The notes: generated from the sequence alone by a model not told the origin. Positions 1 through 40,324 are shown, counted from the stretch's first letter. The stretch: 64,000 nucleotides of DNA from an uncultured candidatus Porisulfidus sp. (GCA_965116025.1 OZ220480.1:1951447-2015446), one strand, 5' to 3'. Numbers and translations are program-made.

Positions 1-2
1 GA

Positions 3-1709
3 CTTATCTCTGCCGCAATCAGCCGATGTGCAACCCACTGGTCGTCTGGAACAATGTGGATACAGGACCTCGAAGCTGTAGCAAATATATTTGGCCGACA
101 AGCATTACCTATCGTTTGGGATTTTGCAGAAGCATGCGGTTTCGGCGACGGTGGAGCGACTTTAGATGGACAAGTTAGCTGGATTGCCAAAGTGGCGGGG
201 CAACTTCCCATTCGAAAAGCAGCAAACATACAAGCTTCAGATGCCGCTGACTACCCACTCCCGGATCAAAGCGCAACTATCTGGTTTACGGATCCACCTT
301 ATTACGATGCCGTTCCGTATGCCGACTTATCCGATTTTTTTATGGTTTGGCTAAAGCGCGGTCTGCCCAATCACCCTCTCTTGCGTGACCCCTACGATCC
401 AAACAACCCTCTTACGCCCAAGGACCGTGAAGCAGTACAGGACGAAACAAAGAAAAATGATGGTCGCTCCAAAGATCGTTCATGGTTCGAGGAAACTATG
501 GCGAAAGCGTTCACCGAGGGAAGGCGCGTTCTTACCAAGGATGGTGTTGGTTCTGTCGTATTCGCCCACAAGACCACCGAAGGATGGGAAGCACTGCTCT
601 CGGGCATGATCCAAGGCGGCTGGACCATCACAGGTTCTTGGCCAATTGCGACCGAACGAGCTGCCCGAATGCGTGCCCATGACTCGGCTGCCCTCGCTAC
701 CAGTATCCACCTCATTTGCCGCCCGCGCTCGAGTGATGCTCTAGTCGGTGAATGGGCTGAAGTGCTTCGCGAACTTCCCTTACGGGTTTCCAAATGGATG
801 GATCGACTTCAAGGGGAAGGTGTTCGTGGAGCAGACCTTGTCTTCGCATGTATCGGGCCTGCAATTGAGATTTTCAGTCGCTACCAGACTGTCGAGACCG
901 CGGACGGTCGGAGTGTCGGCCTCCCAGAATATTTAGAGAAAGTCTGGGAAGTCGTAGGGCGTGCAGCACTTGAACAAGTGCTTGGCGTGACTGAAGCTAC
1001 CGCCCGCAGCGGCATGGCTGGCGCGCTGGAGGAAGATGCTCGCTTGACCGCCTTGTTTCTATGGACTCTCCAGAGTACTGAAGAATTTCGAATGGGGAAT
1101 GATCGAGAGGGTTCCGTTGCCAGCCATCCAGCGGTAACCGAAAATGCTACGCCTAAGGAGTTAGATGGAAAAGATGAAGAAGCCGTCACCAAAGCAACAA
1201 TGAAAGGGTTTCACCTTCCCTTTGACGTAGTACGGCGTTTCTCTCAACCCATGGGCATTGATCTCGAACGTTGGACCGGAAGGATTATTAGCCAAGAAAA
1301 AGGCATTGTGTGGTTGCTTCCGATCACGGAACGGGTGAAATCACTCTTCGGAGACGAAGGTTCCGCAAGTGTTGCCGAATGGGTCGATAACCACCCGGCC
1401 GACGATACGCAAGCGGTCCTCTTTCCCGACCTTGATATACCTGCCTCGCCGGGACATCAACCAAGCAGAAATGCACAAGATACCGACCCTATTCTGCAAT
1501 CATCTGATGCCACAATACTTGACCGAATCCACGCTGCCATGTTGTTGCAAGTAGGCGGTTATGCAAATGCCTTGCGGACGTTGATCTTCCAAGAACAGGA
1601 ACGAGGACCAGATTTCTTGCATCTCGCAAACGCGCTTTCCGCGCTCTACCCACGCGGTAGCCGCGAGAAAAGAATCTTGGATGCCATGCTTCTAGCCGTA
1701 CCAAAGTGA
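3..1709 (+). CDS. DUF1156-family N6-adenine DNA methyltransferase, C-terminal part (5' end lies outside window)
   Basis: Reading frame is open from position 3 through the listed ATG at 54. DPPY methylase motif (FTDPPYYDAVPYADLSDFF) is present. Protein resembles the COG1743/DUF1156 methylases that pair with DUF499 ATPases. Lower GC than the rest of the window. Confidence 0.7.
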   Translation, partial: LISAAISRCATHWSSGTMWIQDLEAVANIFGRQALPIVWDFAEACGFGDGGATLDGQVSWIAKVAGQLPIRKAANIQASDAADYPLPDQSATIWFTDPPYYDAVPYADLSDFFMVWLKRGLPNHPLLRDPYDPNNPLTPKDREAVQDETKKNDGRSKDRSWFEETMAKAFTEGRRVLTKDGVGSVVFAHKTTEGWEALLSGMIQGGWTITGSWPIATERAARMRAHDSAALATSIHLICRPRSSDALVGEWAEVLRELPLRVSKWMDRLQGEGVRGADLVFACIGPAIEIFSRYQTVETADGRSVGLPEYLEKVWEVVGRAALEQVLGVTEATARSGMAGALEEDARLTALFLWTLQSTEEFRMGNDREGSVASHPAVTENATPKELDGKDEEAVTKATMKGFHLPFDVVRRFSQPMGIDLERWTGRIISQEKGIVWLLPITERVKSLFGDEGSASVAEWVDNHPADDTQAVLFPDLDIPASPGHQPSRNAQDTDPILQSSDATILDRIHAAMLLQVGGYANALRTLIFQEQERGPDFLHLANALSALYPRGSREKRILDAMLLAVPK

Positions 1710-1846
1710 CATCATGGAATCGAAAGCACGTCCGAAGGACAGAAAATCCTTGAATCTCTCTGGCTGGCAAGTCTTCCCTCGAACTAGCCATTTTCCGCTA
1801 CAGGTTTTACAATCTCACTCACGTTTTGAAACGCAAGGAGAACAAC

Positions 1847-2104
1847 ATGACGGAAGAAACCGAACTGCTGAGGCGAATCACTGTCCGGCCCGATATCTTT
1901 GGCGGCAAGCCGATCATACGCAATATGCGAATCGCGGTGGAACATGTCTTGGCCAATCTAGCGGCAGGAGAAACGGTTGAGGACCTGCTAGAAAACTATC
2001 CATTCCTTGAGCAGGAAGATATCCAAGCATGCTTGCTCTTCGCTCACCGCTCATTAGCTGGAGAACATGTACATGACCGCATCATCGATCAAAGAACTTC
2101 GTGA
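1847..2104 (+). CDS. DUF433-domain protein, antitoxin-like partner of DUF5615
   Basis: Sequence ...RPDIFGGKPIIRNMRIAVEHVLANLAAGETVEDLLENYPFLEQEDIQACLLF is typical of DUF433. An AAGGAG SD lies just upstream of the second in-frame ATG, so the start is placed at 1847 rather than 1826. Stop overlaps the start of the next gene (ATGA). Confidence 0.8.
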   Translation: MTEETELLRRITVRPDIFGGKPIIRNMRIAVEHVLANLAAGETVEDLLENYPFLEQEDIQACLLFAHRSLAGEHVHDRIIDQRTS

Positions 2105-2478
2105 AATTTCTCCTCGATATTTGCGCCACATCGCAAGTACTACGTTCATGCTTGGTAGAACTTGGGCATGATGTCTTATCCGCACGAGACTGTTTTTCCC
2201 ATGCATCAGACGAAGCGTTACTGGAATTCGCCTGCAGGGAAAGTCATGTGCTCATTACCGAGGACAAGGATTTCGGTGAGCTTGTCTTTCTGCATGGCTT
2301 GCCTCATCCATCTATTGTGCGGCTTGTCGGGATGACTCCGACAGAAAGGGCGGATGCTATGCGAAATCTGATTGAGTGCCATGCGGATGCCATACGCAAG
2401 AGCTCAATAATCGTGGTGACCAGAAAATGCGTGCGGATACGGTCGGCAAGAAACCTTGGGAGCGTCAACAATGGCTAG
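2101..2478 (+). CDS. DUF5615-domain protein, PIN-like toxin partner of DUF433
   Basis: MKFLLDICATSQVLRSCLVELGHDVLSARD...ITEDKDFGELVF matches the DUF5615 family consensus (MKFLLDENL...DKDFGELV). Translationally coupled to the upstream DUF433 gene. Confidence 0.8.
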   Translation: MKFLLDICATSQVLRSCLVELGHDVLSARDCFSHASDEALLEFACRESHVLITEDKDFGELVFLHGLPHPSIVRLVGMTPTERADAMRNLIECHADAIRKSSIIVVTRKCVRIRSARNLGSVNNG

Positions 2479-5239
2479 GAGCCCTTGGTACAAAGTCGTT
2501 ACGCCGCGATCAGAAGTGCGGGAAGGTCGCTCATTCAGCCCAGACGAGTTCGCGATTGCCCTTGAGCAGGTGGTCGCGGGAACCGCCCCCTTGGATTACC
2601 GTGACCCTGCGCAATTCTTCTCGCGAACATGTTTTACTCGCGCCTTCAAGGAACATGCTGGTATGGTGCTTCGCCGTCTTGCAGGCGAGACGCAAAACAC
2701 GTCCCCGGTGCTTACCCTCGTTACCCAGTTTGGCGGAGGAAAGACCCACACGCTCACTGCGCTCCACCATCTCGCCAATGCCGGCTCACGGGCCAAAAGC
2801 CTGCCCGGCGTATCTGATCTCCTGGCTGAAGCGGGAATCTCCAAGCCACCTGATGCGCGAGTTGGTGTCTTCGTAGGTAATGCGTGGGACCCCACCGAAG
2901 GGCGTGAAACACCATGGATTGACCTAGCCTACCAAATAGCTGGTAACAGAGGTGTCGCCGCGCTTGGATCGACCGCAAAAACAACTCCACCTGGAACCGA
3001 GTCGCTCGCCCGGGTCTTCGCTGCCGTGGATGCTCCCGTACTGCTGCTGTTTGACGAGGTTCTGAACTTCGTTAACCGGCATCGGGACAAGGCTGAAAGC
3101 TTCCATGCCTTCATACAGAACCTGGCGGTCGCCGTCACCGGAACCACTGAGACGGTCACCGTCATAAGCCTGCCACGAAGTCAGGTGGAGATGACCGATT
3201 GGGATCAGCAATGGCAAGATCGGATCACAAAAGTAGTGAGGCGCGTCGCGCGTGACCTCATCGCCAACGATGAAGCCGAAATTGGCGATGTCGTTCGCCG
3301 GCGCCTGTTTGAGAACCTCGGCGATGAGAAAATTCGAAAACAAGTCTCAAAAATCTATGCTGATTGGTGTTTTGAACGAACTGCTCGGCTTCCCTCTGAA
3401 TGGATGGCGACCGACAGTGCCCCGCCGGAAACCAAAGCGCGGGAGTTTCTGATGGGCCGTTTCGAAGCTTGCTATCCTTTCCATCCCTCGACTCTCTCAG
3501 TTTTCCGAAGAAAATGGAGTGCGCTCGCGCAATTCCAGCAAACCCGTGGTACGCTTGCGATGCTTGCCCAATGGGTATCTTGGGCCGCACGCCAACAATT
3601 TCAGCAAGCCCGAACGGAACAGCTGATCACGCTCGGGTCGGCACCACTGCATGTGCCCGAGTTTCGCGCTGTCGTGCTTGGGCAACTAGGTGAGCAACGG
3701 TTGGATGTGGCCATAGCCGCCGACCTAGCGAGTCCCACGGCGCATGCCCGAGCTCTAGATATCGATACTCGGGGACCAATCAGGGACATACATCAGCGGG
3801 TGGGAGCGGCCATTCTCTTCGAGTCTTCTGGAGGACAAGTAGACAAAGTGGCTCACTTGCCCGAACTGCGTTTCGCCCTTGGTGAACCCGAAATCGAAAC
3901 CACAACCATTGATAACGCTGCGGGGGCATTAGAAGCATCAGGGTTCTTCATCCGCAAAGTCGGAACGGATGGTTTCCGCATCCACCATCAAGCGACCTTG
4001 AAAAAAGTTGTTAACGACCGTCGTGCCACGCTTGACGAAGAAACAGAAATTCGGCCTGTAATTCGTAAATTAGTGGAAGAGGAATTCACCCGAGGTGCCA
4101 ATCTTCCGGTTATACCCTTCCCTGATGACGGCGCAACTATCCAAGATGCGCCACGTCTGATACTGGTCCTCGTCGACCCAGAAGCGGAATGGGAACTCGG
4201 TGGGAAAACAGCAAAAAAAATCGAACGATGGACCAAAGAGAGAGGAACTTCGCCAAGGCTGCATCCTGCGTCCTTGGTCTGGTGTGCCAAAAAACCAGGG
4301 CGGGAACTCAAGAATCGCGTCGAGATGTGGCTTGCTTGGCGACGAGTCTCTTTGGATGTCGCGGAAGGTGTGCTCGGGACGGAATTTGGTCGCGCTGATC
4401 AAAACGAATTGCAGTCCAAAGTCAGAGATGCCGAAAATGCCGCGAGAGACGAAGTATGGGCCAGCTATCGATTCGTCGCTCTCGCCGATGCCAGAGCCGA
4501 ATCCGGACTTAAAATGATTGATCTTGGAGCCGGGCATAGTAGCGCGAGTGAAACACTCTGCGGAAGGGTGTTAACCGCGCTCAAGACCGAAGCCCTGCTA
4601 AGTGAAACCATCGGTGCTGGTTACCTCGACCGGCATTGGCCACCAGCATTCAAGGAGACCGGCGCTTGGCCACTAACCAGCCTGCGGCAAAGCTTTCTCA
4701 ACGGCTCCCTGACTCGGCTCATTGATCCCGATACCGCCCTGCGGCAAAAGATCGTTGAATTCGTCGAGAAAGGAGATTTTGGGCTCGCTTCGGGAACACT
4801 GGCAAGCAGCCAATACGAACATCTATGGTACATGGAGCCAGTCGAGGCTGAGGAGGTCGCTTTCGAGAAAAATGTCTTCCTGTTAACCAAAGCACGAAGC
4901 GAGGAATTGCGAATGCCAGTAGCACCAGAGCCAAAGCCATATTCTGTAACGCCACCACCGTCCACACCTGATCCTGGCAGCGTGGATGAATTCGAATCAG
5001 AGACTAACATGTCTGATGAGCCTGTTCAATTACGTGTGCATGGAACCATACCCCCAGAACTGTGGAATCGCCTCGGCACAACGGTCATTCCAAAACTCCG
5101 CTCCGGTGATGAGCTGAAAACGCAAGTAGAAGTCAGCGTCAAAGTTGCCGCGCCCATGGCGGCAGCCTTACAGACGGATATCCAGCAAACCCTGACCGAG
5201 TTAAATCTTGATGGCCAAGTAAGTGTTGAGTGCTCTTGA
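2456..5239 (+). CDS. DUF499-family P-loop ATPase, BrxC/PglY-like defence ATPase
   Basis: 927-aa ORF with Walker A TQFGGGKTHTL. Large ATPase adjacent to the DUF1156 methylase, a conserved defence-island pairing (COG1483/COG1743). Lower-GC region. Confidence 0.75.
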   Translation: MGASTMARSPWYKVVTPRSEVREGRSFSPDEFAIALEQVVAGTAPLDYRDPAQFFSRTCFTRAFKEHAGMVLRRLAGETQNTSPVLTLVTQFGGGKTHTLTALHHLANAGSRAKSLPGVSDLLAEAGISKPPDARVGVFVGNAWDPTEGRETPWIDLAYQIAGNRGVAALGSTAKTTPPGTESLARVFAAVDAPVLLLFDEVLNFVNRHRDKAESFHAFIQNLAVAVTGTTETVTVISLPRSQVEMTDWDQQWQDRITKVVRRVARDLIANDEAEIGDVVRRRLFENLGDEKIRKQVSKIYADWCFERTARLPSEWMATDSAPPETKAREFLMGRFEACYPFHPSTLSVFRRKWSALAQFQQTRGTLAMLAQWVSWAARQQFQQARTEQLITLGSAPLHVPEFRAVVLGQLGEQRLDVAIAADLASPTAHARALDIDTRGPIRDIHQRVGAAILFESSGGQVDKVAHLPELRFALGEPEIETTTIDNAAGALEASGFFIRKVGTDGFRIHHQATLKKVVNDRRATLDEETEIRPVIRKLVEEEFTRGANLPVIPFPDDGATIQDAPRLILVLVDPEAEWELGGKTAKKIERWTKERGTSPRLHPASLVWCAKKPGRELKNRVEMWLAWRRVSLDVAEGVLGTEFGRADQNELQSKVRDAENAARDEVWASYRFVALADARAESGLKMIDLGAGHSSASETLCGRVLTALKTEALLSETIGAGYLDRHWPPAFKETGAWPLTSLRQSFLNGSLTRLIDPDTALRQKIVEFVEKGDFGLASGTLASSQYEHLWYMEPVEAEEVAFEKNVFLLTKARSEELRMPVAPEPKPYSVTPPPSTPDPGSVDEFESETNMSDEPVQLRVHGTIPPELWNRLGTTVIPKLRSGDELKTQVEVSVKVAAPMAAALQTDIQQTLTELNLDGQVSVECS

Positions 5240-5740
5240 TCCAAGTAGATCACATAGGAAAAGGCTTTGAGCCAATCAACTCCCTTGAAGCCAATCAGCC
5301 ATCAACGTCGTGGGAACGAGTCTGCGTATTGCCAACCATATCGATGAACTGGCTGAGGCCGTCGTTCCCTGCCAATTTTCCTTCTCGTAGAGAATCGCGT
5401 CAAGCCTCGTATTTTCCACTCCGCACCCGCATCTCTCGGCACGTACCGGGCCGCCAGATCAGCAAAGGTCTGCGCCATCCGACCAACCCTCGCCCGATGA
5501 CTGCCGGGCTAACAATCAATATCGCAATCGTCGCCGCCGAAGAGCCAAGCGAGACCGAAAACAATAGCGAGAAATTTCCACATAGCGAAAGCGTTTATCC
5601 AAATAGCCGAATCAGAAGCAATCACTTCGCGAAGCGCGCCTCGTCTCCCAATGCCAGACCGTTTTTGGGCCTAACGCACTTGCATTTTACCAAACGCTCA
5701 TAATCCTTGTCGCGGCCAGCCTACCGCCAAGGAAAGAAAC

Positions 5741-5974
5741 ATGACGGAAACCGAACTTCTGAGCCACGTCACCTCGCGGCCCGATATTTTCGGCGGCAAG
5801 CCGATCATACGCGGCATGCGAATCGCGGTGGAGCATGTCTTGGCCAATCTGGCGGCGGGAGAGACGGCCAAGGATTTGCTGAAAGACTATCCATTCCTTG
5901 AGGCGGAAGATATCCAGGCATGCTTGCTCTTCGCCCAGCGCTCGCCGGCGCCCTCTCATCGCGCGAAGACCTGA
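5741..5974 (+). CDS. DUF433-domain protein, second copy, orphan (no DUF5615 partner)
   Basis: Protein is ~85% identical to the 1847..2104 product (MTETELLSHVTSRPDIFGGKPIIRGMRIAVEHVLANLAAGE...). Nucleotide direct repeat with 1846-2045. Its C-terminus diverges where the GC content rises. Confidence 0.65.
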   Translation: MTETELLSHVTSRPDIFGGKPIIRGMRIAVEHVLANLAAGETAKDLLKDYPFLEAEDIQACLLFAQRSPAPSHRAKT

Positions 5975-6378
5975 TCTGGATCGCGGAACGCCTTGAACTC
6001 CAGCATGTTGCCAGACGGGTCGCGCGCGAACGCGGTCGCCTGCTCCCCAGTCTCTCCCTGAAAGCGGACGGTCGGCTCCAACTCGAAGGCCACGCCGCAG
6101 GCGCGCATGCGATCCACCAGCTCCTCCCACCGCTCCCATTCCAGAATCAGCCCGAAATGGGGCACGGCGATCTCCTCCCCATCGACCGAATTACGGATCT
6201 CATCCCGGGCCGCGTCACGCCGATGCGCCGTGATCTGGTGTCCCATCAAGTCGAAATCGATCCACGTCTCGGACGACCGTCCGATGCGACACTGCAGCAC
6301 CCCGGCGTAAAAGGCTTCCGCCGAGGACAGATCATCGACCGCGATCGCCAGATGAAACCGCGGATGTCCCGCGCTCAT
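5956..6378 (-). CDS. VOC family protein (glyoxalase/bleomycin resistance/dioxygenase fold)
   Basis: 140-aa ORF with VOC-like sequence (HLAIAVDDLSSAEAFYAGVL...). Start overlaps the tsaB stop (ATGA-type coupling). Confidence 0.7.
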   Translation of the reverse strand: MSAGHPRFHLAIAVDDLSSAEAFYAGVLQCRIGRSSETWIDFDLMGHQITAHRRDAARDEIRNSVDGEEIAVPHFGLILEWERWEELVDRMRACGVAFELEPTVRFQGETGEQATAFARDPSGNMLEFKAFRDPDQVFAR

Positions 6379-30911: not shown

Positions 30912-33900
30912 TCACCACTGGAGGGAGGCGCGCAAGGCGATCCGGCTCTCGTCGCCGGTCTCCGCCTCCAGCGCCAGCGCCAGCGTCTCGCCACGGCGGT
31001 AGCGCGTCCCCAGCCGCAGCAGCGCCAACCCGGACTCCTCCACCGACAGCCCCGCGTACGGCGTCGCCAGCCCCGCCCACGGCCCCGACAGCCCCTGACC
31101 CACCTCCGCCTCCAGCCGCGTCCGAGCCTCCGCCTCCCCCAGCCTCGCCGACGACCCCTCCCGCGCGAACAGCCGCGCCAGCCCGCTCCCCGCGTCGCCC
31201 CGACCCAGCGACAGCCGCAGCGACGGACCCCGACCGCTCGCCTCCGGCGTCACCGACATCCGCGCGCTCGCGCTCCACTCGTCGCGATCCGCCTCGTGCG
31301 CCACCAGCGCCCGCGTCCGAAGCTCCACCGACATCCGACCCGTCCCGTCCAAGTACGACACGCTCGCCCCCAGCTCCGCCCCGGCCCCGTCCGTCGCGTC
31401 GCCCCCGTCGTAGCGCGCCCCCGCCTCCAGCGCCGGCGTCAGCCTGCCCCCGTCCTCCAAGACCCGCTCCCGCGACCCCTCCAGCGCCAGCCGCACCCGG
31501 CTCGCGTCCACCGACAGCCCCTCCAGCCCGTCCTCCGCGTCCGTCCGCGCCCGCGCCAGCGAGCCCTCCCCCCGCAGCGCCAATCGCAGAACGTCTCCTC
31601 CCGCGCCCGAGCGCTCCGACAGCGTCCGCCAGCCCCCCGCCGACGCGCTCCGCGTCCGCAAGTCCGCCTCCCGCGTCGCCTGACCATCCTCCCGCACCCG
31701 AACCTTCCCGCGCCCGTAGCTCGCGCTCGCCCACAAGCTCGACCCGTCCTCCAAAAGCCACGCCATATACGGGCGCACCGACGCCAGCCGCGTCTCGTGC
31801 CGCCCCCGAACCCCGTCCGCCTCCGTGTCCAGATCGCCCTCCGCGTAGGACGCCGCCACCCCCGCCAGAACGTCCGGGCGCGCCCGGAAGTCCACCCCGG
31901 CGTGCGCCGACCACACCTCCCCGTCCCAGGACACCCCGTCCTCCGACCCGTCCAGCGACGACAGCGCCCCGCGAACCCAGACCGACGCCACCCGGCTCCC
32001 GTCCGCCCCGGTCAATCCCGTCGCCAGCGCCGTCCCGGACAACGCCGCCCGCCAGTCCAGCCCGGCCCCGTCCGCGCCCGCCCCCGACGCCAGCGCCGCG
32101 CCCAGGTCCAGCGCCTCCGGCTCCACCCCCGACGCCGCGAGCTCGATCCGCCGCGCGATCACCCCGGTCGCCTGCGCCACCGCCGCCGCCAGCGCCTGCG
32201 GCAGCGCCGCCGCGTTCACCCGGCTCGCCCGCGCCGCCGCCCCCAGCCGGTCGCTCACTATCCCGTCCGCCAGAGCGTCCGCCCCCACCGCGTAGCCCGT
32301 CCCCGACAGCAGCTCGACCCGGTACGCCTCCTCCCCCTCCGACCCCTGATCCCCTGCCGTCGGGATCAGCACGATCCCCGCCATCCCCGCCTCCGCCCCG
32401 AAGTCCGCCTGGAAGTCCCGCGGGCCCAGCCCGCCCTCGACGTCCTCCGCGTCGAAGCCGCTCTCCTCCCGCGCCGACAGCCTCAGGCGAACCGTCAGCA
32501 TGCCCGTCACCGCCTTGTCCGACGCCACCGTCAGCCGGATCGCCTCCCCCTCCGCCGTCACCGACGGGTCTGCCGATAATTGCAGGATCGGCGTCGTCTC
32601 CGACACCGACACCGACACGTCCGACAGCGTCGCGTCGTCGTAGCCCCCGCCCGCGGTCGCGTGCGTCAGCGTCACCGCCACCTCCGCTTCCGCGTCCTCA
32701 TCCGCCGCCGCCGACACCGTCACCGTCACCGGAACGTTCCAAGTCGCCGTCGTGAACGTCAGGCTCGATGGCGCCGCCGACACGTCCCCCGACGCCCCGC
32801 CCACCGTCACCGTCACGCTCGCCGACGGCTTCGTGTGCAGAACCACCGTGTACGAGCCGCTCCCGCCCTCCACGACCGTCAGCTCCGTCGGCGCCACCGT
32901 CCCCCCCGGATCGTCCTCCTTCACCGACACCTCCACCGTCCCGACCGACACCGAGCCGTAGCCCCTGCTCGTCGCCACATGCGTCAGCCGCGTCGGCGGG
33001 TCCGTCATCGTGTCGTCGTCCTCCTCCACCGCCGTCACCGTCACCGTCTGGGCTGTCGACCAGTCCGCCGTCGTGAACGTCAGACGCGACGGCGTCGCCG
33101 TCACCTCCGCCGTCGTCCCGCCCACCGACACCGTCACCGCCGCCAACGGCTTCGAGCTCAGAACCACCGTGTACGAGCCGCTATCCCCCTCCTCCAGCTC
33201 CAGCTCCATCGGCTTGAGGGTCACTCCCGGCAGCGGCATCGGCGTCGCCTTCACCTGGTCCGACCACGACGACTGCACCCCGGGACGGACCGCGGCGAAC
33301 AGGCGAAACGTGTATTTCGTGCCGTTCGTCAAACCCGTCACCTTGACGCTCGTCCGGCTCCCGCCCGTGAGCGTCGTGGTCGTGCTCCAGCCGCCCGAAC
33401 TCTTGTACTGGTAACCCCAGCTCGTTATCGGAATGCCCGACAAGGCGTTCCAGCTCAGGGTGGCCGAGGCGTCGCTCCCCGCCGCCGTCAGAACCGGCTT
33501 GGGAACAGTATTCGTCGGCGTCGCCTTCACCTGGTCCGACCACACCGACTGCGCGCCGCTGCCGGTGCGGGCGAACAGGCGGAACGTGTATTTCGTGCCG
33601 ACCGTCAGACCCGACACCGTGTGGCTCGTCGCGCTGCCGTCATCAATCGTCTTGGTCCCGCTCCAGGAGCCGCCATCCGGCTTGTACTGGTAGCCCCAGC
33701 TCGCGACCGTCACGCCCGACAAGGCGCTCCAGCTCAGGGTGACCGAGGCGTAACCCGCTTCGGCGCTCAGCTCCGGCTTGGGAACCGCCGCCGACGCCGA
33801 CGGCGTCGCCTCCACCACCGCCGACTGCCGCCCGTTGCCGCCACTGTTCCGCGCCCGAATGCGGAAGCGGTACTCCACATCGTTGTCCAGACCCGTCACC

Positions 33901-34610
33901 GTGTGCCGCACGGTGGCCGCGTCCGAACCGGAAATGGCGGTCCAGCCGCCCCAGCCGGCGGCGCCCTTCTTCCGCCGCACCTGATACCGCGTGATCGAAT
34001 CGTCGTCCGGATCGGTCCACGACAGCGTCACCCGCGTGTCGCCCGCCTCCGCCAACAACCCCGTCGGGGTGGCGGGGACGGCGGTGGTGCCGTCGTCGTT
34101 GTCAGTGATGGTGAGGATCAGCGTGTTGCTGTTCTGCGTCCAGCCATCCGAACGTGCCAGCGAGTTAGGGACAAGCCTTAAAGCGACGGTTTCCCCGGTC
34201 CCTTCATCAGCTGTGTCGCCCAGAATGCCAATCGCGAAACTTCCATTCGTCCCAATGTTAACATTTACGAATGCGTTGTCGCTGAAGACGCCGGGATAAC
34301 AGATATCCGCACCGCTGGACGGAGCGCTGCAAGAGGTCGTGCCAACATTGGTGTTGTCGGTTGCCGTGCTGCTGCCAGCAACAAACTCAACGTTAAACCC
34401 CACTCTAGTTGGCGTGCCCTCCCCGAGCTTGACGTTGATCGTCACATCCTTCTTGCCGGAATCGCCCTCGGTGATCGTGGTTGACGCGGTCGATATGGCG
34501 ACGGTCTTGGCGGCGCGGGCGTTTTCGGGCGCGGCGAGCGCCACCAGCGCGAAGAAGACGAAGGCGAGTCCCGCCGTCAGGCGGCGAGCGACTCTCCCGA
34601 GACCACCCAC
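30912..34610 (-). CDS. Large autotransporter adhesin-like protein with FN3 and Calx/cadherin-like repeats and a C-terminal beta-barrel
   Basis: Track ORF is 1279 aa (30912..34751). A signal peptide (GLGRVARRLTAGLAFVFFALVALAAPENARA) begins at the in-frame GTG at 34610. Repeated FN3-like modules (…YQVRRKKG…, …WGYQYKPDGG…, …WGYQYKSSGG…). C-terminal ~280 aa beta-domain ends in aromatic W (…RASLQW). The start is ambiguous because of the upstream poly-C tract. Confidence 0.75.
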   Translation of the reverse strand: MGGLGRVARRLTAGLAFVFFALVALAAPENARAAKTVAISTASTTITEGDSGKKDVTINVKLGEGTPTRVGFNVEFVAGSSTATDNTNVGTTSCSAPSSGADICYPGVFSDNAFVNVNIGTNGSFAIGILGDTADEGTGETVALRLVPNSLARSDGWTQNSNTLILTITDNDDGTTAVPATPTGLLAEAGDTRVTLSWTDPDDDSITRYQVRRKKGAAGWGGWTAISGSDAATVRHTVTGLDNDVEYRFRIRARNSGGNGRQSAVVEATPSASAAVPKPELSAEAGYASVTLSWSALSGVTVASWGYQYKPDGGSWSGTKTIDDGSATSHTVSGLTVGTKYTFRLFARTGSGAQSVWSDQVKATPTNTVPKPVLTAAGSDASATLSWNALSGIPITSWGYQYKSSGGWSTTTTLTGGSRTSVKVTGLTNGTKYTFRLFAAVRPGVQSSWSDQVKATPMPLPGVTLKPMELELEEGDSGSYTVVLSSKPLAAVTVSVGGTTAEVTATPSRLTFTTADWSTAQTVTVTAVEEDDDTMTDPPTRLTHVATSRGYGSVSVGTVEVSVKEDDPGGTVAPTELTVVEGGSGSYTVVLHTKPSASVTVTVGGASGDVSAAPSSLTFTTATWNVPVTVTVSAAADEDAEAEVAVTLTHATAGGGYDDATLSDVSVSVSETTPILQLSADPSVTAEGEAIRLTVASDKAVTGMLTVRLRLSAREESGFDAEDVEGGLGPRDFQADFGAEAGMAGIVLIPTAGDQGSEGEEAYRVELLSGTGYAVGADALADGIVSDRLGAAARASRVNAAALPQALAAAVAQATGVIARRIELAASGVEPEALDLGAALASGAGADGAGLDWRAALSGTALATGLTGADGSRVASVWVRGALSSLDGSEDGVSWDGEVWSAHAGVDFRARPDVLAGVAASYAEGDLDTEADGVRGRHETRLASVRPYMAWLLEDGSSLWASASYGRGKVRVREDGQATREADLRTRSASAGGWRTLSERSGAGGDVLRLALRGEGSLARARTDAEDGLEGLSVDASRVRLALEGSRERVLEDGGRLTPALEAGARYDGGDATDGAGAELGASVSYLDGTGRMSVELRTRALVAHEADRDEWSASARMSVTPEASGRGPSLRLSLGRGDAGSGLARLFAREGSSARLGEAEARTRLEAEVGQGLSGPWAGLATPYAGLSVEESGLALLRLGTRYRRGETLALALEAETGDESRIALRASLQW

Positions 34611-34630
34611 AGCCTCAGCACCCCATATAA

Positions 34631-34648
34631 GGGGGGGGGGGGGGGGGG
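34631..34648. repeat. Homopolymeric tract: 18 consecutive G (poly-C on the autotransporter coding strand)
   Basis: Directly read from the sequence: ataa + G18 + tatgag. Lies 20 nt upstream of the GTG start of the autotransporter, between TTGCCT (-35-like) and TTATAT (-10-like) hexamers. Confidence 0.9.
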
Positions 34649-34760
34649 TATGAGAGTTAGGCAAAGATTCCGCCTTAATCACAAACACTCGTCCGACCAA
34701 TCCAGTGCTGATCGCCGACATTATAGCCCAGCTCGTCAGGCGCGCCATCATTAACGAGAA

Positions 34761-37700
34761 TCACTTCGCATGATCAGGGAGGATAGCCCTCACAAGAGCG
34801 TCGATTTCCGTCAACGTCCCGTCCTCCGCGAGTCGTGCGCGAACGCGCCGGGAGGCGGCGACTTGACCAGCGGGCAGATCCATCGCCCCTACAATCTTTT
34901 CCGCCCTCGCCGCCAACGCGGCTAGCCGCTGATGAGCGCCATCACCCGCCTTCCAAGCCGGTATCGGTACCGCCCGCCACGGATTCTTGTGAAAGTCGCG
35001 ACCACTGGCGCGACAGGCTCGAAACGCTTCTTCGAGAGCGGGCGCGTTCAATACGGCCACTAGATAACGCGCTTCCGCGACGGTTCCCATAGAACGCCGA
35101 TATAGCTTTGAGTCCACTACGGCCATTCCCTCCGGGACACGCGCGGCGCGCATCACGTCTCCAGATGCCGGATAAACTACCAAATAGGCGCGACGAGCCT
35201 TCAGTGGCAACTGGGCTGACAACTTGCCGCCATAGTCGATTTGCTTGATCAGGGTGCTCGGGGTGTTGCTGCCAAGCCCTCTGCGCTCGCGGTAAAGATC
35301 ATCAAGCTCGGTCCAGAACGCTACCTTTCGAGCGACTTCCGTAGATAGCAACTTTCCGTCTTCGCCACGGGGAATTATGACCGTCTCCAGCCCTTCGGGC
35401 GAAAACCCGAACGGGAGCAACAGCTTTGATGTCAGCAACGGGGTCAGCCAGCGTTCCGGGACCTCGCCCTCGCGAGGCCGAACCATATCCCACGGGGGAT
35501 GGTCCGAACGCGCCATGGTCACGGTCCTAGCTTCGGACCGGGCCCCGGCCCCCACCATCGCCGTCTTCGTTAATACTTTTGGAACGACTGTGGCACCCTG
35601 CCGCCAGTGGTCGGCCGCATAGTCAGATGGTAATCGCGGGATCTGTCGGGGCGCGACCCAGCGCAACAAAGCCCAAGTCTCGTCCAACGACGAGGACGCG
35701 CCAGGCGTGGCACCGACGCTCTCCGCTTTCAGCGTTTTTCCGCCAACATCGCCACCGGGAATGCCAGACACCCGCCGAATCTCGAAAAGCGCGCAACAAC
35801 GCCTCGCATCACCCCCGCCAAAGACTTTCACGTCTGACAAATCAAGGGCCTGGGCTAAAAGACCGACGTGCCAATCGCGAAACTTCCTCCAGTTCCCGGC
35901 GCGAATGGCGGCCGCCTTGGTCACCCATGCGGCGGGATCGGAACCTGGGTCGTTCAGATACGCCATGCGGGCATGGCGTATGAACAGTTGCGCGATGTCG
36001 AAATGCGGAGCCTGCTTCCCGCCTGTCCAGAGATCAAGATGGCCCGCCTGTTCATCTTTGCCGGCCATGCGCTCCAACGCGCGTTTTCTCTCGGGAACCT
36101 GGATTTTCGCCAGCTTGACCCAAGGCGGATTGGCGACGATGCGATCAACCTTGCGCCGCGCCAGCCGATCCGGACCAAGAACGTTGTTGATATACCAAGT
36201 CCAGACCGAGTTACCTTCTCTCTCGATCGCCTCCACGAGATTCTTGTGGCATTCAGCCACCATTTCGCGATTCCCTTCGTTATCAACCGCCAGGCCGATA
36301 TCGGCCGGCAACGCGCCGCCGCGCGCGGCGGCATCCACCATGCGACGGAGCATGTCGGGAAAGTCCGCGTGTTCCGTGAACGTCCTTGGCAAAACGATTT
36401 CATGTCCATACGGAGTCCGTATCAGGATTTCCCCATTACGCGGCTCGAACAGGGTGCGCTCGTCGGTCTGCCGCAACATCAGCGCGTCGCCTTGATAGAT
36501 CGACAGCGCCATGCTCGCGGCGGGCGGCGTGGCCGGCAACGCCCGCAACAACGTGGCGCGACTGAACTCCACGGCCACCGGATGAATGTCGATGCCATGC
36601 ACGAGCAGGCAGACGACCTCGGCTCTTTGTCCCGGTTGCAGGTCTCTCGCCGCCTCACAGGCCAAGATGCGCCTCGCGCAGTGGTAGAGAAACGTCCCCG
36701 AGCCACAGGTCGGGTCCAGAACGCCAACGCCATCCATCCGGTCACGACCGCGCGCCGTGATGAGCGCGGCGGTGACCGCTCGCTCGCACCACTGCTCATC
36801 CAGGACCTCGCCCACCATCAATTCGGCGAGCCAGTCCGGAGTGTACACTTCCCCGAAGTCGCGGCGGTCACCGCGATCCACGAAACGCTCGTAGAGCGGG
36901 CGTAGCACATCGCCTGCCGTCCGCCGCCATTCATAGGCATGCGCGCGGTCGAGCAAGTCCTGCGCCCAGACTCGCCCGTCCTCAATCTCGACGATCCATG
37001 CCGGAAATCCATCGCCCAAAATCTCAACAGGATTGGGCCGGGCGTTTGGGTTGAACAGCGTATGCGCCACGCCTCGGGCGAGGGCGACCAAGAAACAGTG
37101 GGCGGTGAACAGCCGGATTCGGGCCGCGTCGGTTTCCGGAGCCATGCCTGACCCTCGGAGCATGTCCAACCATAGCCGCATCTTGGTATCGGTAGCCCGC
37201 CGAACGCGCTCGCCTACTAGACTCGCATGCACCTCCCGCAAGTCTTCCAGAGACCCCGCGAAGAGCGGAACCGGGTCAGAAGGAATCCATGGCCTGCCAA
37301 CGGGCTCCACGTCAAGAATCGGTCCGACGCGAAGCACTAATTCGTCGCTAGTGCTCGGCCGAAAACTGTCGAGCACAAGTTCTGGCACGGTCTGGCGAGC
37401 ATGCGGAAACCGCCACGCATGCCAGACGCGGCCATCCGTCACGATACCAGTCCAAAAGAGATCCGGTTGCTCCTCCAGCGGCGACCGGTCAAGCTCGTCC
37501 TCCATCTCCGCGGTCAGATAGCGCTTGAGTTGCTCGAACGGAGTCTCGCGGATTTGCGCTCGGTGCGGATCGTCCGCCAGACCGGCAGTCTTGGTCTCAA
37601 TAAATACCCGCCGGTTCGGTAGGAAAATATCGGCCAAACCACCCCTCGTCCTGAAGGTCAGGAGATTCTCGATACCCAAGCAATCCAGAAGCCGCCCGAT

Positions 37701-38189
37701 ATCCTGCCGGACACGATCCTCTGGACGGCTTGGATTCGCGTCCAGCAATCTTCGCGCGGCGCGAATCGAGTCTCCACCGAGGTCGCGCGGCACGGAACTC
37801 ACGCGACGCCGCCCCAGCGCGCCTGTCGTTCTGCCTGTCCGGTCGCGCCGTGCGCGAGCGGGAGCGGACCGATCTCTCGGACGTTCGAGCTCATGGATTA
37901 ACGCTCTCTTGATGAGTTCAGAGAAAGCCGGGGAAGTTCCTGTGGAATGATAGCAGAAGAAGCCCCAGAGAAGACGAAGACGAGCCCATGGCATAGTTCG
38001 CAAGGTGGAATCCCGGGAAGACACGGCTCCACAATCCTGTTCGCGCGAGACTGCCGCCATACGCCCTCGGCAAACGGAGGCGATCAAGAGCGCATTTGGA
38101 GCCCGCACCGAAATTCCGGCAAGTTGCGCCGGGACGCATGGCCATCCACCGCAAAGAGACGAGTCAGGACATACGCCATCCTCGGCCAA
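34761..38189 (-). CDS. Type IIG restriction-modification enzyme (MmeI-like fused PD-ExK endonuclease / gamma-class N6-adenine methyltransferase / TRD)
   Basis: PD-ExK-like segment near the N-terminus (…DIFLPNRRVFIETK…). SAM-binding motif I VLDPTCGSGTFL and motif IV IVANPPWVK. Large single polypeptide (~1100 aa). The true start may be an internal Met. Lower GC than the core genome. Confidence 0.65.
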   Translation of the reverse strand: MAEDGVCPDSSLCGGWPCVPAQLAGISVRAPNALLIASVCRGRMAAVSREQDCGAVSSRDSTLRTMPWARLRLLWGFFCYHSTGTSPAFSELIKRALIHELERPRDRSAPARARRDRTGRTTGALGRRRVSSVPRDLGGDSIRAARRLLDANPSRPEDRVRQDIGRLLDCLGIENLLTFRTRGGLADIFLPNRRVFIETKTAGLADDPHRAQIRETPFEQLKRYLTAEMEDELDRSPLEEQPDLFWTGIVTDGRVWHAWRFPHARQTVPELVLDSFRPSTSDELVLRVGPILDVEPVGRPWIPSDPVPLFAGSLEDLREVHASLVGERVRRATDTKMRLWLDMLRGSGMAPETDAARIRLFTAHCFLVALARGVAHTLFNPNARPNPVEILGDGFPAWIVEIEDGRVWAQDLLDRAHAYEWRRTAGDVLRPLYERFVDRGDRRDFGEVYTPDWLAELMVGEVLDEQWCERAVTAALITARGRDRMDGVGVLDPTCGSGTFLYHCARRILACEAARDLQPGQRAEVVCLLVHGIDIHPVAVEFSRATLLRALPATPPAASMALSIYQGDALMLRQTDERTLFEPRNGEILIRTPYGHEIVLPRTFTEHADFPDMLRRMVDAAARGGALPADIGLAVDNEGNREMVAECHKNLVEAIEREGNSVWTWYINNVLGPDRLARRKVDRIVANPPWVKLAKIQVPERKRALERMAGKDEQAGHLDLWTGGKQAPHFDIAQLFIRHARMAYLNDPGSDPAAWVTKAAAIRAGNWRKFRDWHVGLLAQALDLSDVKVFGGGDARRCCALFEIRRVSGIPGGDVGGKTLKAESVGATPGASSSLDETWALLRWVAPRQIPRLPSDYAADHWRQGATVVPKVLTKTAMVGAGARSEARTVTMARSDHPPWDMVRPREGEVPERWLTPLLTSKLLLPFGFSPEGLETVIIPRGEDGKLLSTEVARKVAFWTELDDLYRERRGLGSNTPSTLIKQIDYGGKLSAQLPLKARRAYLVVYPASGDVMRAARVPEGMAVVDSKLYRRSMGTVAEARYLVAVLNAPALEEAFRACRASGRDFHKNPWRAVPIPAWKAGDGAHQRLAALAARAEKIVGAMDLPAGQVAASRRVRARLAEDGTLTEIDALVRAILPDHAK

Positions 38190-39232: not shown

Positions 39233-40324
39233 CTACAGCAAGTCGCGTTGCGCCGGCTCTTCCGCATCGGAATGCGAGACCAGATTCGAGACCGTCACTC
39301 CGAGCAGCCGGACCGCTTGACCTGGCCTCGTGGCGCGACGCAACAAATCCGGCAGAACGTTCGCCATCTGCCGATACGACGCCAAAGGCCTGGCGAACGA
39401 GTGGCTTCTGGTCACTTGCGTGAAATCGCTGAATTTTACCTTGACCGTGACCGTCTTCCCGGTCAGCCGCCTCTCCTGCAAGTCCAGCGCCACCTCACGC
39501 GCTCGCAACCTGAGCGCGCGCGACATTTCTTCCAGATCCCGCAGATCCCGCTCAAACGTCGTCTCCGAACCCAGCGATTTTCGGGGACGGTCTGGCTCCA
39601 CCTCGCGGAAATCCATTCCCCTCGCCGCCTGATAATAGTATTCGGCATGCTTCCCGAACAGTGGCTGAAGTCGCTCCAGCGACCACTTTCTGAGGTCGGC
39701 ACCAGTCTCGATCCCGAGTTTCTTCATTCGCGCCGCCGTGACCGGTCCGATCCCAAAGAACTTTCGGATTGGCAGACGCGACGCCAGTTTCGGGCCCTCT
39801 TCTGGACGCACGACGGTCAGGCCATCGGGCTTGTTCATGTCCGAGGCGACCTTGGCGAGAAACTTGTTGTACGAGACTCCCGCCGAACCGGTCAGCCGGG
39901 TTCGTTCCAGGATGCGGCGCTTGACGTCTCGCGCGATATCCGTCGCTATGCCGCCGAACAGGCGGCAACCCGTCACGTCCAGATATGCCTCATCCAAGGA
40001 AAGGGGCTCGACCTTGTATGTGTAGCGACGAAAAATTTCCTGGATTTCCGCGGATACGCTCCGATACAGGTCAAATCGCGGCCGTAAGAAAACGACTTCC
40101 GGGCATCGTTTCTTGGCCGTTCGACTCGCCATCGCCGAATGAATGCCATACGCCCGAGCCTCGTAGTTGCATGTCGCCACCGTGCCGCGGCATTCCGGGT
40201 CGCCGCCAACGACCAAGGGGTGGCCACGTAGCGAGGGGTCTTCCCGCGTCTCGACAGCCGCGTAGAACGCGTCCATATCGATATGGATGATTCGGCGCGC
40301 GTGGGGATCGCTCGCGGAAGCCAT
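39233..40324 (-). CDS. dinB: DNA polymerase IV (Y-family, error-prone)
   Basis: IIHIDMDAFYAAVE…, …SLDEAYLDVT… and little-finger domain. 363 aa. Confidence 0.9.
   Translation of the reverse strand: MASASDPHARRIIHIDMDAFYAAVETREDPSLRGHPLVVGGDPECRGTVATCNYEARAYGIHSAMASRTAKKRCPEVVFLRPRFDLYRSVSAEIQEIFRRYTYKVEPLSLDEAYLDVTGCRLFGGIATDIARDVKRRILERTRLTGSAGVSYNKFLAKVASDMNKPDGLTVVRPEEGPKLASRLPIRKFFGIGPVTAARMKKLGIETGADLRKWSLERLQPLFGKHAEYYYQAARGMDFREVEPDRPRKSLGSETTFERDLRDLEEMSRALRLRAREVALDLQERRLTGKTVTVKVKFSDFTQVTRSHSFARPLASYRQMANVLPDLLRRATRPGQAVRLLGVTVSNLVSHSDAEEPAQRDLL

Follow-up and report, generated by a model that had tools for sequence, protein, structure and literature searches.

The locus studied here raises the question whether a long homopolymer in front of a surface-protein gene acts as a switch for this gene and, if so, how the cell would read its length. 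It lies in a stretch of 64,000 nucleotides from an uncultured candidatus Porisulfidus sp. (GCA_965116025.1 OZ220480.1:1951447-2015446), in the following called the window. Eighteen consecutive G at 34631-34648 of the + strand, i.e., C18 on the coding (-) strand, end exactly 20 nt before the GTG that opens the gene of an FN3-repeat outer-membrane protein. The initial annotation, made from the window alone, had described this tract as a candidate phase-variation switch. Its position and length were found in the sequence as described, and the general idea gained support as the tract proved to be a conserved hallmark of a gene family, with a length that varies between copies with identical flanks. 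The comparison of these copies indicates that the tract is very probably a random on/off switch (or a dimmer) for a host-facing protein. As mechanism we favor a reading-frame (translational) phase switch in the leader, upstream of the start of the FN3 protein, with a probability of about 0.5.

The features needed first are:

34631..34648, - strand: poly-C tract, C18 on the coding strand and G18 on the + strand; homologous C9-C31 tracts stand at the equivalent place in 27 related loci
30912..34610, - strand: gene of an FN3-repeat surface protein of 1232 aa, autotransporter-like, with C-terminal outer-membrane beta-barrel (Pfam, AlphaFold2 (AF2) and Foldseek)
34608..34610, - strand: GTG start codon of this gene, opening the signal peptide; the equivalent start of the homologues is GTG, once ATG
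34512..34610, - strand: predicted signal-peptide coding region of 33 codons, ending in PENARA before AK (n/h/c-region pattern; conserved in the homologues P0004, P0005 and P0036)

The poly-C tract is a hallmark of the gene family

C18/G18 is the only homopolymer of more than 8 nt in the 64 kb. The G run next in length has 6 nt, and the number of G18 runs expected from base composition is 1.2e-5. At least 501 relatives of the family are present in species-representative genomes, and the sample of loci consisted of 80 loci obtained from these genomes with a barrel-domain profile, the DNA for two homologues and two metagenome contigs. A pure C9-C31 run on the coding strand was found 20-37 nt before the equivalent start codon in 27 homologous loci; in four loci with a 38-nt insert this distance is 63-66 nt. 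The tract was present in every member of the GRTARRL type (start G-x-x-G-R-T-A-R-R-L) whose 5' end was inside the fetched locus, and none was found in the fetched loci of distant relatives with other N-termini. The tract is carried by metagenome-assembled chromosomes that belong to at least four phyla, i.e., Pseudomonadota (Alphaproteobacteria, Pseudohongiella, Arenicellales/Poriferihabitaceae and other Gammaproteobacteria), Acidobacteriota (Vicinamibacteria, Thermoanaerobaculia/Multivorans and Marinacidobacterium), Thermodesulfobacteriota and Candidatus Binatota. A genome note, together with the names of the metagenome-assembled genomes (MAGs), points to sponge-associated metagenomes as their source (PMC12859430).

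The tract is also visible in the predicted proteins. The protein search returned P0001, which is 100% identical to the window product and annotated from ATG 34721, thus including the poly-Pro. P0002, P0003 and P0121, three paralogues encoded on the 2.02-Mb contig of P0001, have P5-P7 just before the same signal peptide, and at least 13 homologues on other contigs have P4-P10 at this place. Public annotations of the family start either at the upstream ATG, with the poly-Pro extension, or at the GTG (P0001 vs P0004/P0006); the annotated start depends on tract length, and therefore family members differ artificially in length and N-terminus. An exact search of the species-representative contigs with the window flanks and a variable gap gave no match, the 22-mer of the signal-peptide region had only two chance matches to unrelated genes in the JGI metagenomes, and exact-protein look-ups returned no record for the window protein (three start variants) or the paralogue P0002. 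In an Arenicellales MAG, the coding strand of family genes has G12 and G10 instead, with 2 nt between run and ATG (L040 4387-4398; L041 4409-4418), where the runs occupy the ribosome-binding region.

An assembly error had been considered as a further explanation of the tract. This caveat holds for the exact length, which is unverifiable from the consensus and may be off by a base or two, as long homopolymers are the chief error mode of long-read consensus sequences, but it does not hold for the existence of the tract. That the tract is in reality absent or short is barely conceivable, because a run of this kind stands at the equivalent site of 27 further loci (14 named MAG assemblies and one metagenome assembly), is also present in four paralogues from the same genome as the window and is specific to one gene family.

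The tract precedes the gene of a probable outer-membrane protein

The GTG at 34610-34608 opens VGGLGRVARRLTAGLAFVFFALVALAAPENARA, followed by AK, with the n-, h- and c-regions typical of a Sec signal peptide, and the G-x-x-G-R-T-A-R-R-L motif of the signal peptide is common to the window protein and its homologues. The protein has three or more FN3 repeats (Pfam fn3, 6e-28) and ends in LRASLQW. The AF2 model of the last 290 residues is an outer-membrane beta-barrel (predicted local distance difference test score, pLDDT, 78) with about 15 predicted strands and no helix within the modelled 290 aa. Foldseek matched this barrel to FhaC, BrkA, TamA and EspP, where BrkA, EspP and AIDA-I have low template modelling (TM) scores and stand among FhaC, TamA and porins, and a PDB sequence search with the barrel profile returned nothing significant. 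The description of the product as surface adhesin-like agrees with the signal peptide, the FN3 repeats and the C-terminal barrel. The narrower term autotransporter was retained in part: signal peptide and FN3 passenger speak for it, but a classical (type Va) barrel would have 12 strands and a pore-spanning helix (PF03797), and PF03797 does not match the window protein and matches 2 of 12 family members at E 0.01, although some paralogues match. An autotransporter-like product is therefore plausible, with weak support from sequence.

Tract length changes faster than the flanking sequence

Two paralogues on one Vicinamibacteria chromosome (L017 and L018) carry C21 and C24 between flanks that are 100% identical over 100 nt on each side, and the remaining gene sequence is 94-97% identical. 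L036 and L038 have C15 and C14 with flanks of 99-100% identity, L085 and L006 have C12 and C13, and L086 and L001 have C15 and C31 in copies that are 99.5% identical over 4.8 kb. A length that differs between identical or near-identical flanks is the signature expected of a contingency locus, and the hypermutability ascribed to the tract by the initial annotation is borne out by these pairs. The runs are almost always uninterrupted, which therefore points to continuing slippage and/or selection for purity, and replication slippage would be the process that alters the number of C. Four of the features that mark homopolymer contingency loci are thus found together here, i.e., excess length, an expression-relevant position, variable length in homologues and a surface product.

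The tract is probably part of the transcribed leader

The region around the tract contains the following elements:

34649..34760, - strand: leader/intergenic region from the stop of the upstream Type IIG restriction-modification gene to the tract; one frame is open throughout and runs into the tract
34720..34725, - strand: perfect TATAAT; probably the -10 of the promoter of the gene, from which transcription is predicted to start near 34713
34625..34630, - strand: TTATAT directly 3' of the tract, proposed as -10 by the initial annotation; an A/T- or purine-rich patch stands here after most tracts
34615..34617, - strand: TGA stop of frame +2, exactly 7 nt before the GTG (TGA-N4-GTG; homologue comparison)
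34577..34579, - strand: TGA stop of frame +1, 31 nt after the GTG (homologue comparison)

The TATAAT at 34725-34720 belongs to the 112-nt intergenic region and precedes the tract by 72-77 nt on the coding strand. Only three such hexamers occur in the window, and the -35 of this one is poor. The alignment of the commonest flank type has a conserved TTGAAA/TTGCAA-N17/18-TATAAA/TATAGT about 150-180 nt upstream of the tract, where the homology between loci begins at the -35 and the pair of L010 matches at 10/12 positions. Promoter-like matches upstream of the tract are also found in unrelated flank types at -159 (L002), -93 (L004), -55 (L024), -183 (L055) and -102 (L033); the matches in independent flank types are 9-10/12 at 55-183 nt upstream. 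In total, seven flank types including the window have conserved or strong promoter-like sites upstream of the tract, and no sigma-70-like pair spanning the tract was found in the window. Because promoter-like sites lie upstream and none spans the tract, the tract is probably located in the transcribed leader.

The bases next to the tracts show some regularity as well. A is found at -1 in 32 and T at -2 in 25 of 45 distinct flanks, giving a 'TA' just 5' of the tract, and an A/purine-rich patch follows just 3'; both are present even in unrelated flank types. A reading of upstream GAAC motifs as sites of an extracytoplasmic function (ECF) sigma factor was dropped, as their spacing is inconsistent between loci (judged by eye only).

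A proposed translational switch through the upstream reading frame

In the window, frame 0 of the leader is open over 112 nt and the other frames over 30 and 8 nt. The in-frame starts are ATG 34751, 34748 and 34721, all without a Shine-Dalgarno (SD) sequence, and TTG 34664 with a moderate one (-7.6 kcal/mol); at C18 all of them are in the fusion frame. The open reading frame (ORF) 30912..34751, open from ATG 34751 through the tract, reads T-PPPPP-L. The second option of the initial annotation, an intragenic tract translated from this ATG whose length would set the frame, fits better than a promoter spacer, and the frame is indeed open through the tract. However, five Pro codons are encoded instead of PPPPPP, and the option needs modification because the tract precedes the GTG from which the canonical signal peptide is read.

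The upstream ORF (uORF) is more distinct in the main flank type, where the SD GGGACGGGAGGA (duplex -10 kcal/mol) and an ATG are located 84-115 nt upstream of the tract. Each start with such a -10 kcal/mol SD opens an ORF through the tract, and the other two frames are mostly closed. In L086 a 44-aa uORF ending 4 nt before the main start was annotated independently by the gene caller. The SD of the main GTG is weak. All 19 distinct 24-nt pre-start sequences, which represent 26 loci, have a stop at -7 (TGA in 18, TAG in L034), and 18 of 20 evaluated loci have one at +31, where the latter is also implied by the R-L-K/S/T codons and is weak evidence alone.

In the proposed switch, replication slippage would change the number of C in the leader tract. 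As poly-C is poly-proline in every frame, tract length would only decide the downstream frame, i.e., the frame in which ribosomes that started upstream reach the true start. These ribosomes would enter at the strong SD+ATG of the uORF in most homologues and at the weaker in-frame starts in the window. Translation in frame +2 would end at the TGA 7 nt before the GTG, a spacing ideal for termination-reinitiation, so that the native signal peptide would be made; this is likely the ON state. Frame 0 would fuse a proline-containing extension of 40-90 residues to the signal peptide, and in frame +1 the ribosomes would cross the start and stop 31 nt inside the gene, by which initiation would be blocked. 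The weak SD at the GTG, together with a canonical signal peptide encoded only from this GTG, suggests that one frame in three reaches the stop-restart site. The outcome would be a stochastic, heritable and reversible display per cell, with several paralogues per genome switching independently.

Several observations weigh against this switch or fit it only loosely. The uORF peptide is not conserved, with substitutions at all codon positions and indels that are not multiples of 3, and therefore, if the uORF matters, it is the act of translation that matters. The homologues with a strong uORF are distributed 8:6:6 over the three frames, which fits a stochastic switch or no constraint at all. The flank types of the window, L022, L024, L026 and L055 are without a strong SD+start upstream of the tract, and L016/L017 have a short SD-core match only; the uORF is thus not universal. 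Conservation around the -7 stop extends over the whole region, so that the invariance of the stop is only modestly informative. As HiFi consensus sequences can be off by 1-2 nt in long homopolymers, frame assignments are unreliable, including the fusion frame given for C18 of the window and the 8:6:6 distribution of the homologues. Finally, tracts of C25-C31 far exceed what a frame switch needs and would provoke transcriptional slippage that blurs the frame.

Alternative explanations

The leader poly-C could also act independently of the frame, with its length as a dimmer instead of a toggle. It could serve as a loading (Rho utilization, rut) site for Rho, as target of a G-rich small RNA (sRNA), through stalling of ribosomes at the poly-proline or through a template-strand G-quadruplex. 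The Rho ATPase is classically activated by poly(C), and leaders with proline codons control mgtA and mgtCBR in Salmonella. The tract is in a probable leader, and its lengths spread over 9-31 with no preferred frame. The window and several other flank types have no convincing upstream ORF start, and because these lack a strong-SD uORF, a frame-independent role of the poly-C RNA is a serious rival. Still, graded control leaves the invariant -7 stop and the conserved strong SD+ATG unexplained, and the leader folds no better than shuffled sequences (z -0.99 for the window, +2.51 for L010), so that we regard it as clearly less probable than the frame switch. With the same folding result a further candidate, a poly-C hairpin that masks the G-rich ribosome-binding region, was dropped. 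Less probable again is that the tract is mainly a recombination junction at which 5' control modules and gene bodies are swapped, with only a secondary effect on expression. Several mosaics are in line with this, and the homology of two copies often sets in exactly at the tract. L086 (2958-7790) and L001 (1508-6340) have an identity of 99.5% between the tract and a point 29 nt behind the stop, and nothing in common upstream. Between L010 (Alphaproteobacteria) and L017 (Vicinamibacteria) the identity is 92% over the 156 nt that begin at the tract and 66-77% elsewhere. In L033 (9997, 12813) and L043 (1731, 5220), within one Gammaproteobacteria chromosome, each of two upstream modules is found joined to each of two downstream modules. 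Mosaics with 86-92% nucleotide identity extend across phyla, and transposases of insertion sequences (IS) adjoin family genes. But a homopolymer of 9-31 bp is a poor substrate for RecA-type recombination, and in L003/L030 and L031/L029 the homology continues through the tract for 200-430 nt upstream. Moreover, a junction does not explain why a long, pure tract is kept at a fixed distance from the start codon, and it is compatible with the switch models instead of excluding them. The tract may also be a preferred recombination junction.

The mechanism first proposed by the initial annotation, a tract that separates a -35 (TTGCCT) from a -10 (TTATAT) so that only a particular length gives an active promoter, has become very unlikely. 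The hexamers are present as described (TTGCCT at 34664-34659 and TTATAT at 34630-34625, 10 + 18 = 28 nt apart), a loose -10-like match follows the tract in 19 of 41 loci vs 9% in the background, the distance of 20-37 nt between tract and start would permit a short 5' untranslated region, other tracts in these MAG loci (L059, L010, L070) are flanked by textbook hexamers, and the fim 'C-stretch' provides a precedent (PMC1891110). Yet the window has no sigma-70-like pair across the tract, A2 is missing from TTATAT and T6 from TATATG, and the control on the other side and the other strand gave 13 of 41, an almost equal enrichment, which therefore reflects the AT-richer intergenic composition. Promoter-like sites lie upstream of the tract in the seven flank types mentioned above. 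The contraction to about C7 that would restore a 17-nt spacing in the window has no counterpart in the family, where no tract is shorter than C9, and C20-C31 are outside any spacer range.

The three tracts with textbook hexamers probably act as promoter-spacer switches for other genes: TTGACA-N5-C13-N1-TAAAAT (L059 1265-1277), TTGACT-N3-C15-N2-TATTGT (L010 9057-9071) and TTTACA-N1-C10-N3-TATATT (L070 12423-12432).

Probable horizontal exchange of the gene unit

The comparison of L003-L038, L085 and L086 gave 86-92% nucleotide identity across phyla over kilobases (e.g., L003 1891-7139 vs L030 614-5838), with cross-phylum pairs that are 88-92% identical over 1.3-5.3 kb. This identity, together with the mosaicism, indicates recent horizontal exchange among sponge symbionts. 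A conserved motif at the 3' boundary of the exchanged gene unit was not seen among the compared copies. In the two metagenome contigs, DDE_Tnp_1 and Transposase_mut genes are located directly upstream of family genes (L085 1-2656; L086 1444-2742).

Frame switch and exchange can be combined into a wider reading, which we put forward tentatively and hold to be about half as probable as the frame switch as such. The unit would be a self-contained cassette for the expression of mosaic FN3 surface proteins that is shared horizontally by sponge symbionts of several phyla and comprises, in this order, a promoter, the uORF with strong SD+ATG, the poly-C (poly-proline), TGA-N4-GTG and the signal peptide. 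The tract would act both as exchange junction and as a translational gate with three states, i.e., terminate-and-reinitiate, fuse and override.

Neighboring genes in the window

One neighbor of the tract is not part of the proposed switch:

34761..38189, - strand: Type IIG restriction-modification gene, start codon uncertain (PADLOC REase_MTase_IIG, PDLC03630)

The assignment made earlier for this upstream gene is supported by the match to the fused REase-MTase profile PDLC03630 (E 3e-30 over residues 423-800); the Pfam MTase matches are weak. Its TGA stop (34761-34763) is in frame with the open leader and located 9 nt before ATG 34751 (34749-34751), and the restriction gene may conceivably be coupled to the leader or read through into it. 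A DinB/DNA polymerase IV gene (Pfam IMS family, E 1e-50) is found at 39233-40324 on the - strand, at a distance of about 4.6 kb upstream of the tract. DinB is an error-prone polymerase, and it is connected to the tract by its position only. The GC content differs within the window: the 3' two-thirds of the surface gene (window 31001-33000) have 75-77% GC vs a window mean of 64%, and positions 1-6000, which encode a DUF499 protein, have 51-56%. This suggests that both the GC-rich part of the gene and the low-GC first 6 kb are foreign DNA. An Rfam scan of the window found no family.

Significance and comparison with known phase-variable systems

To our knowledge, almost all cases of phase variation by simple repeats come from pathogens. 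The tract described here is conserved across phyla as the hallmark of a very large family of surface proteins of eukaryote-like (FN3) type, whose carriers are uncultured sponge symbionts. In the literature searched, which was incomplete, no study was found that connects sponge symbionts with homopolymer tracts or phase variation. If the tract is a switch, the symbionts could vary the surface that they show to phagocytic cells of the host or to phages. It would also explain the bad and inconsistent annotation of the family, in which starts flip between the upstream ATG and the GTG. The leader/uORF architecture, if true, would be a new way for a homopolymer to gate translation, and the cassette outlined above would be a hitherto undescribed design of contingency locus, and the first one from animal symbionts that are not pathogens.

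Switches of the promoter-spacer type are represented by opc and porA of N. meningitidis and by vlp of Mycoplasma hyorhinis. The vlp genes and the tpr genes of Treponema pallidum are surface gene families controlled by homopolymers, with a conserved 5' block of promoter, leader and signal peptide. Their tracts (poly-A and poly-G) are located in or just upstream of the promoter, and each family is known from one species only. The family described here resembles them as a surface multigene family with a homopolymer in the shared 5' block and a potentially combinatorial ON/OFF display.

The promoters of fim2, fim3 and fimX of Bordetella contain a 'C-stretch', a poly-C of up to C19 whose length polymorphism alters the expression of each gene (PMC1891110). 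As in this system, paralogous surface-structure genes each carry a long poly-C in a conserved 5' block and would vary independently. In contrast, the fim tract is a promoter element, whereas here the promoter-like sites are upstream and the tract is probably in the leader; in addition, the tracts reach C31 and the 5' block is common to several phyla. The tlpB-hp0102 system of Helicobacter pylori has a G-repeat in the leader which is targeted by the sRNA RepG and gives graded control (PMC8295292). It shares with the present locus a length-variable homopolymer upstream of the start codon, and in both the homopolymer would be part of the 5' leader and act after transcription has been initiated; in our case the promoter-like sites make this location probable. 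Unlike here, it needs a complementary sRNA, whereas the tract of the present family is usually inside a uORF with an invariant stop before the start. Intragenic frameshift switches are described for pilC and hmbR/hpuAB of Neisseria, poly-G genes of Campylobacter, and tcfA and bapC of B. pertussis (PMC3786947, PMC8355987, PMC1891110). There, too, the frame of a surface protein shifts when a G/C run close to its 5' end slips. However, these runs follow the functional start and a wrong length truncates the protein, whereas here the signal peptide follows the run and the frame would act through the uORF, by coupling or occlusion, or through an N-terminal extension. The locus would thus be a homopolymer contingency locus that differs from the known switches by its placement in a leader/uORF and in a cassette shared across phyla.
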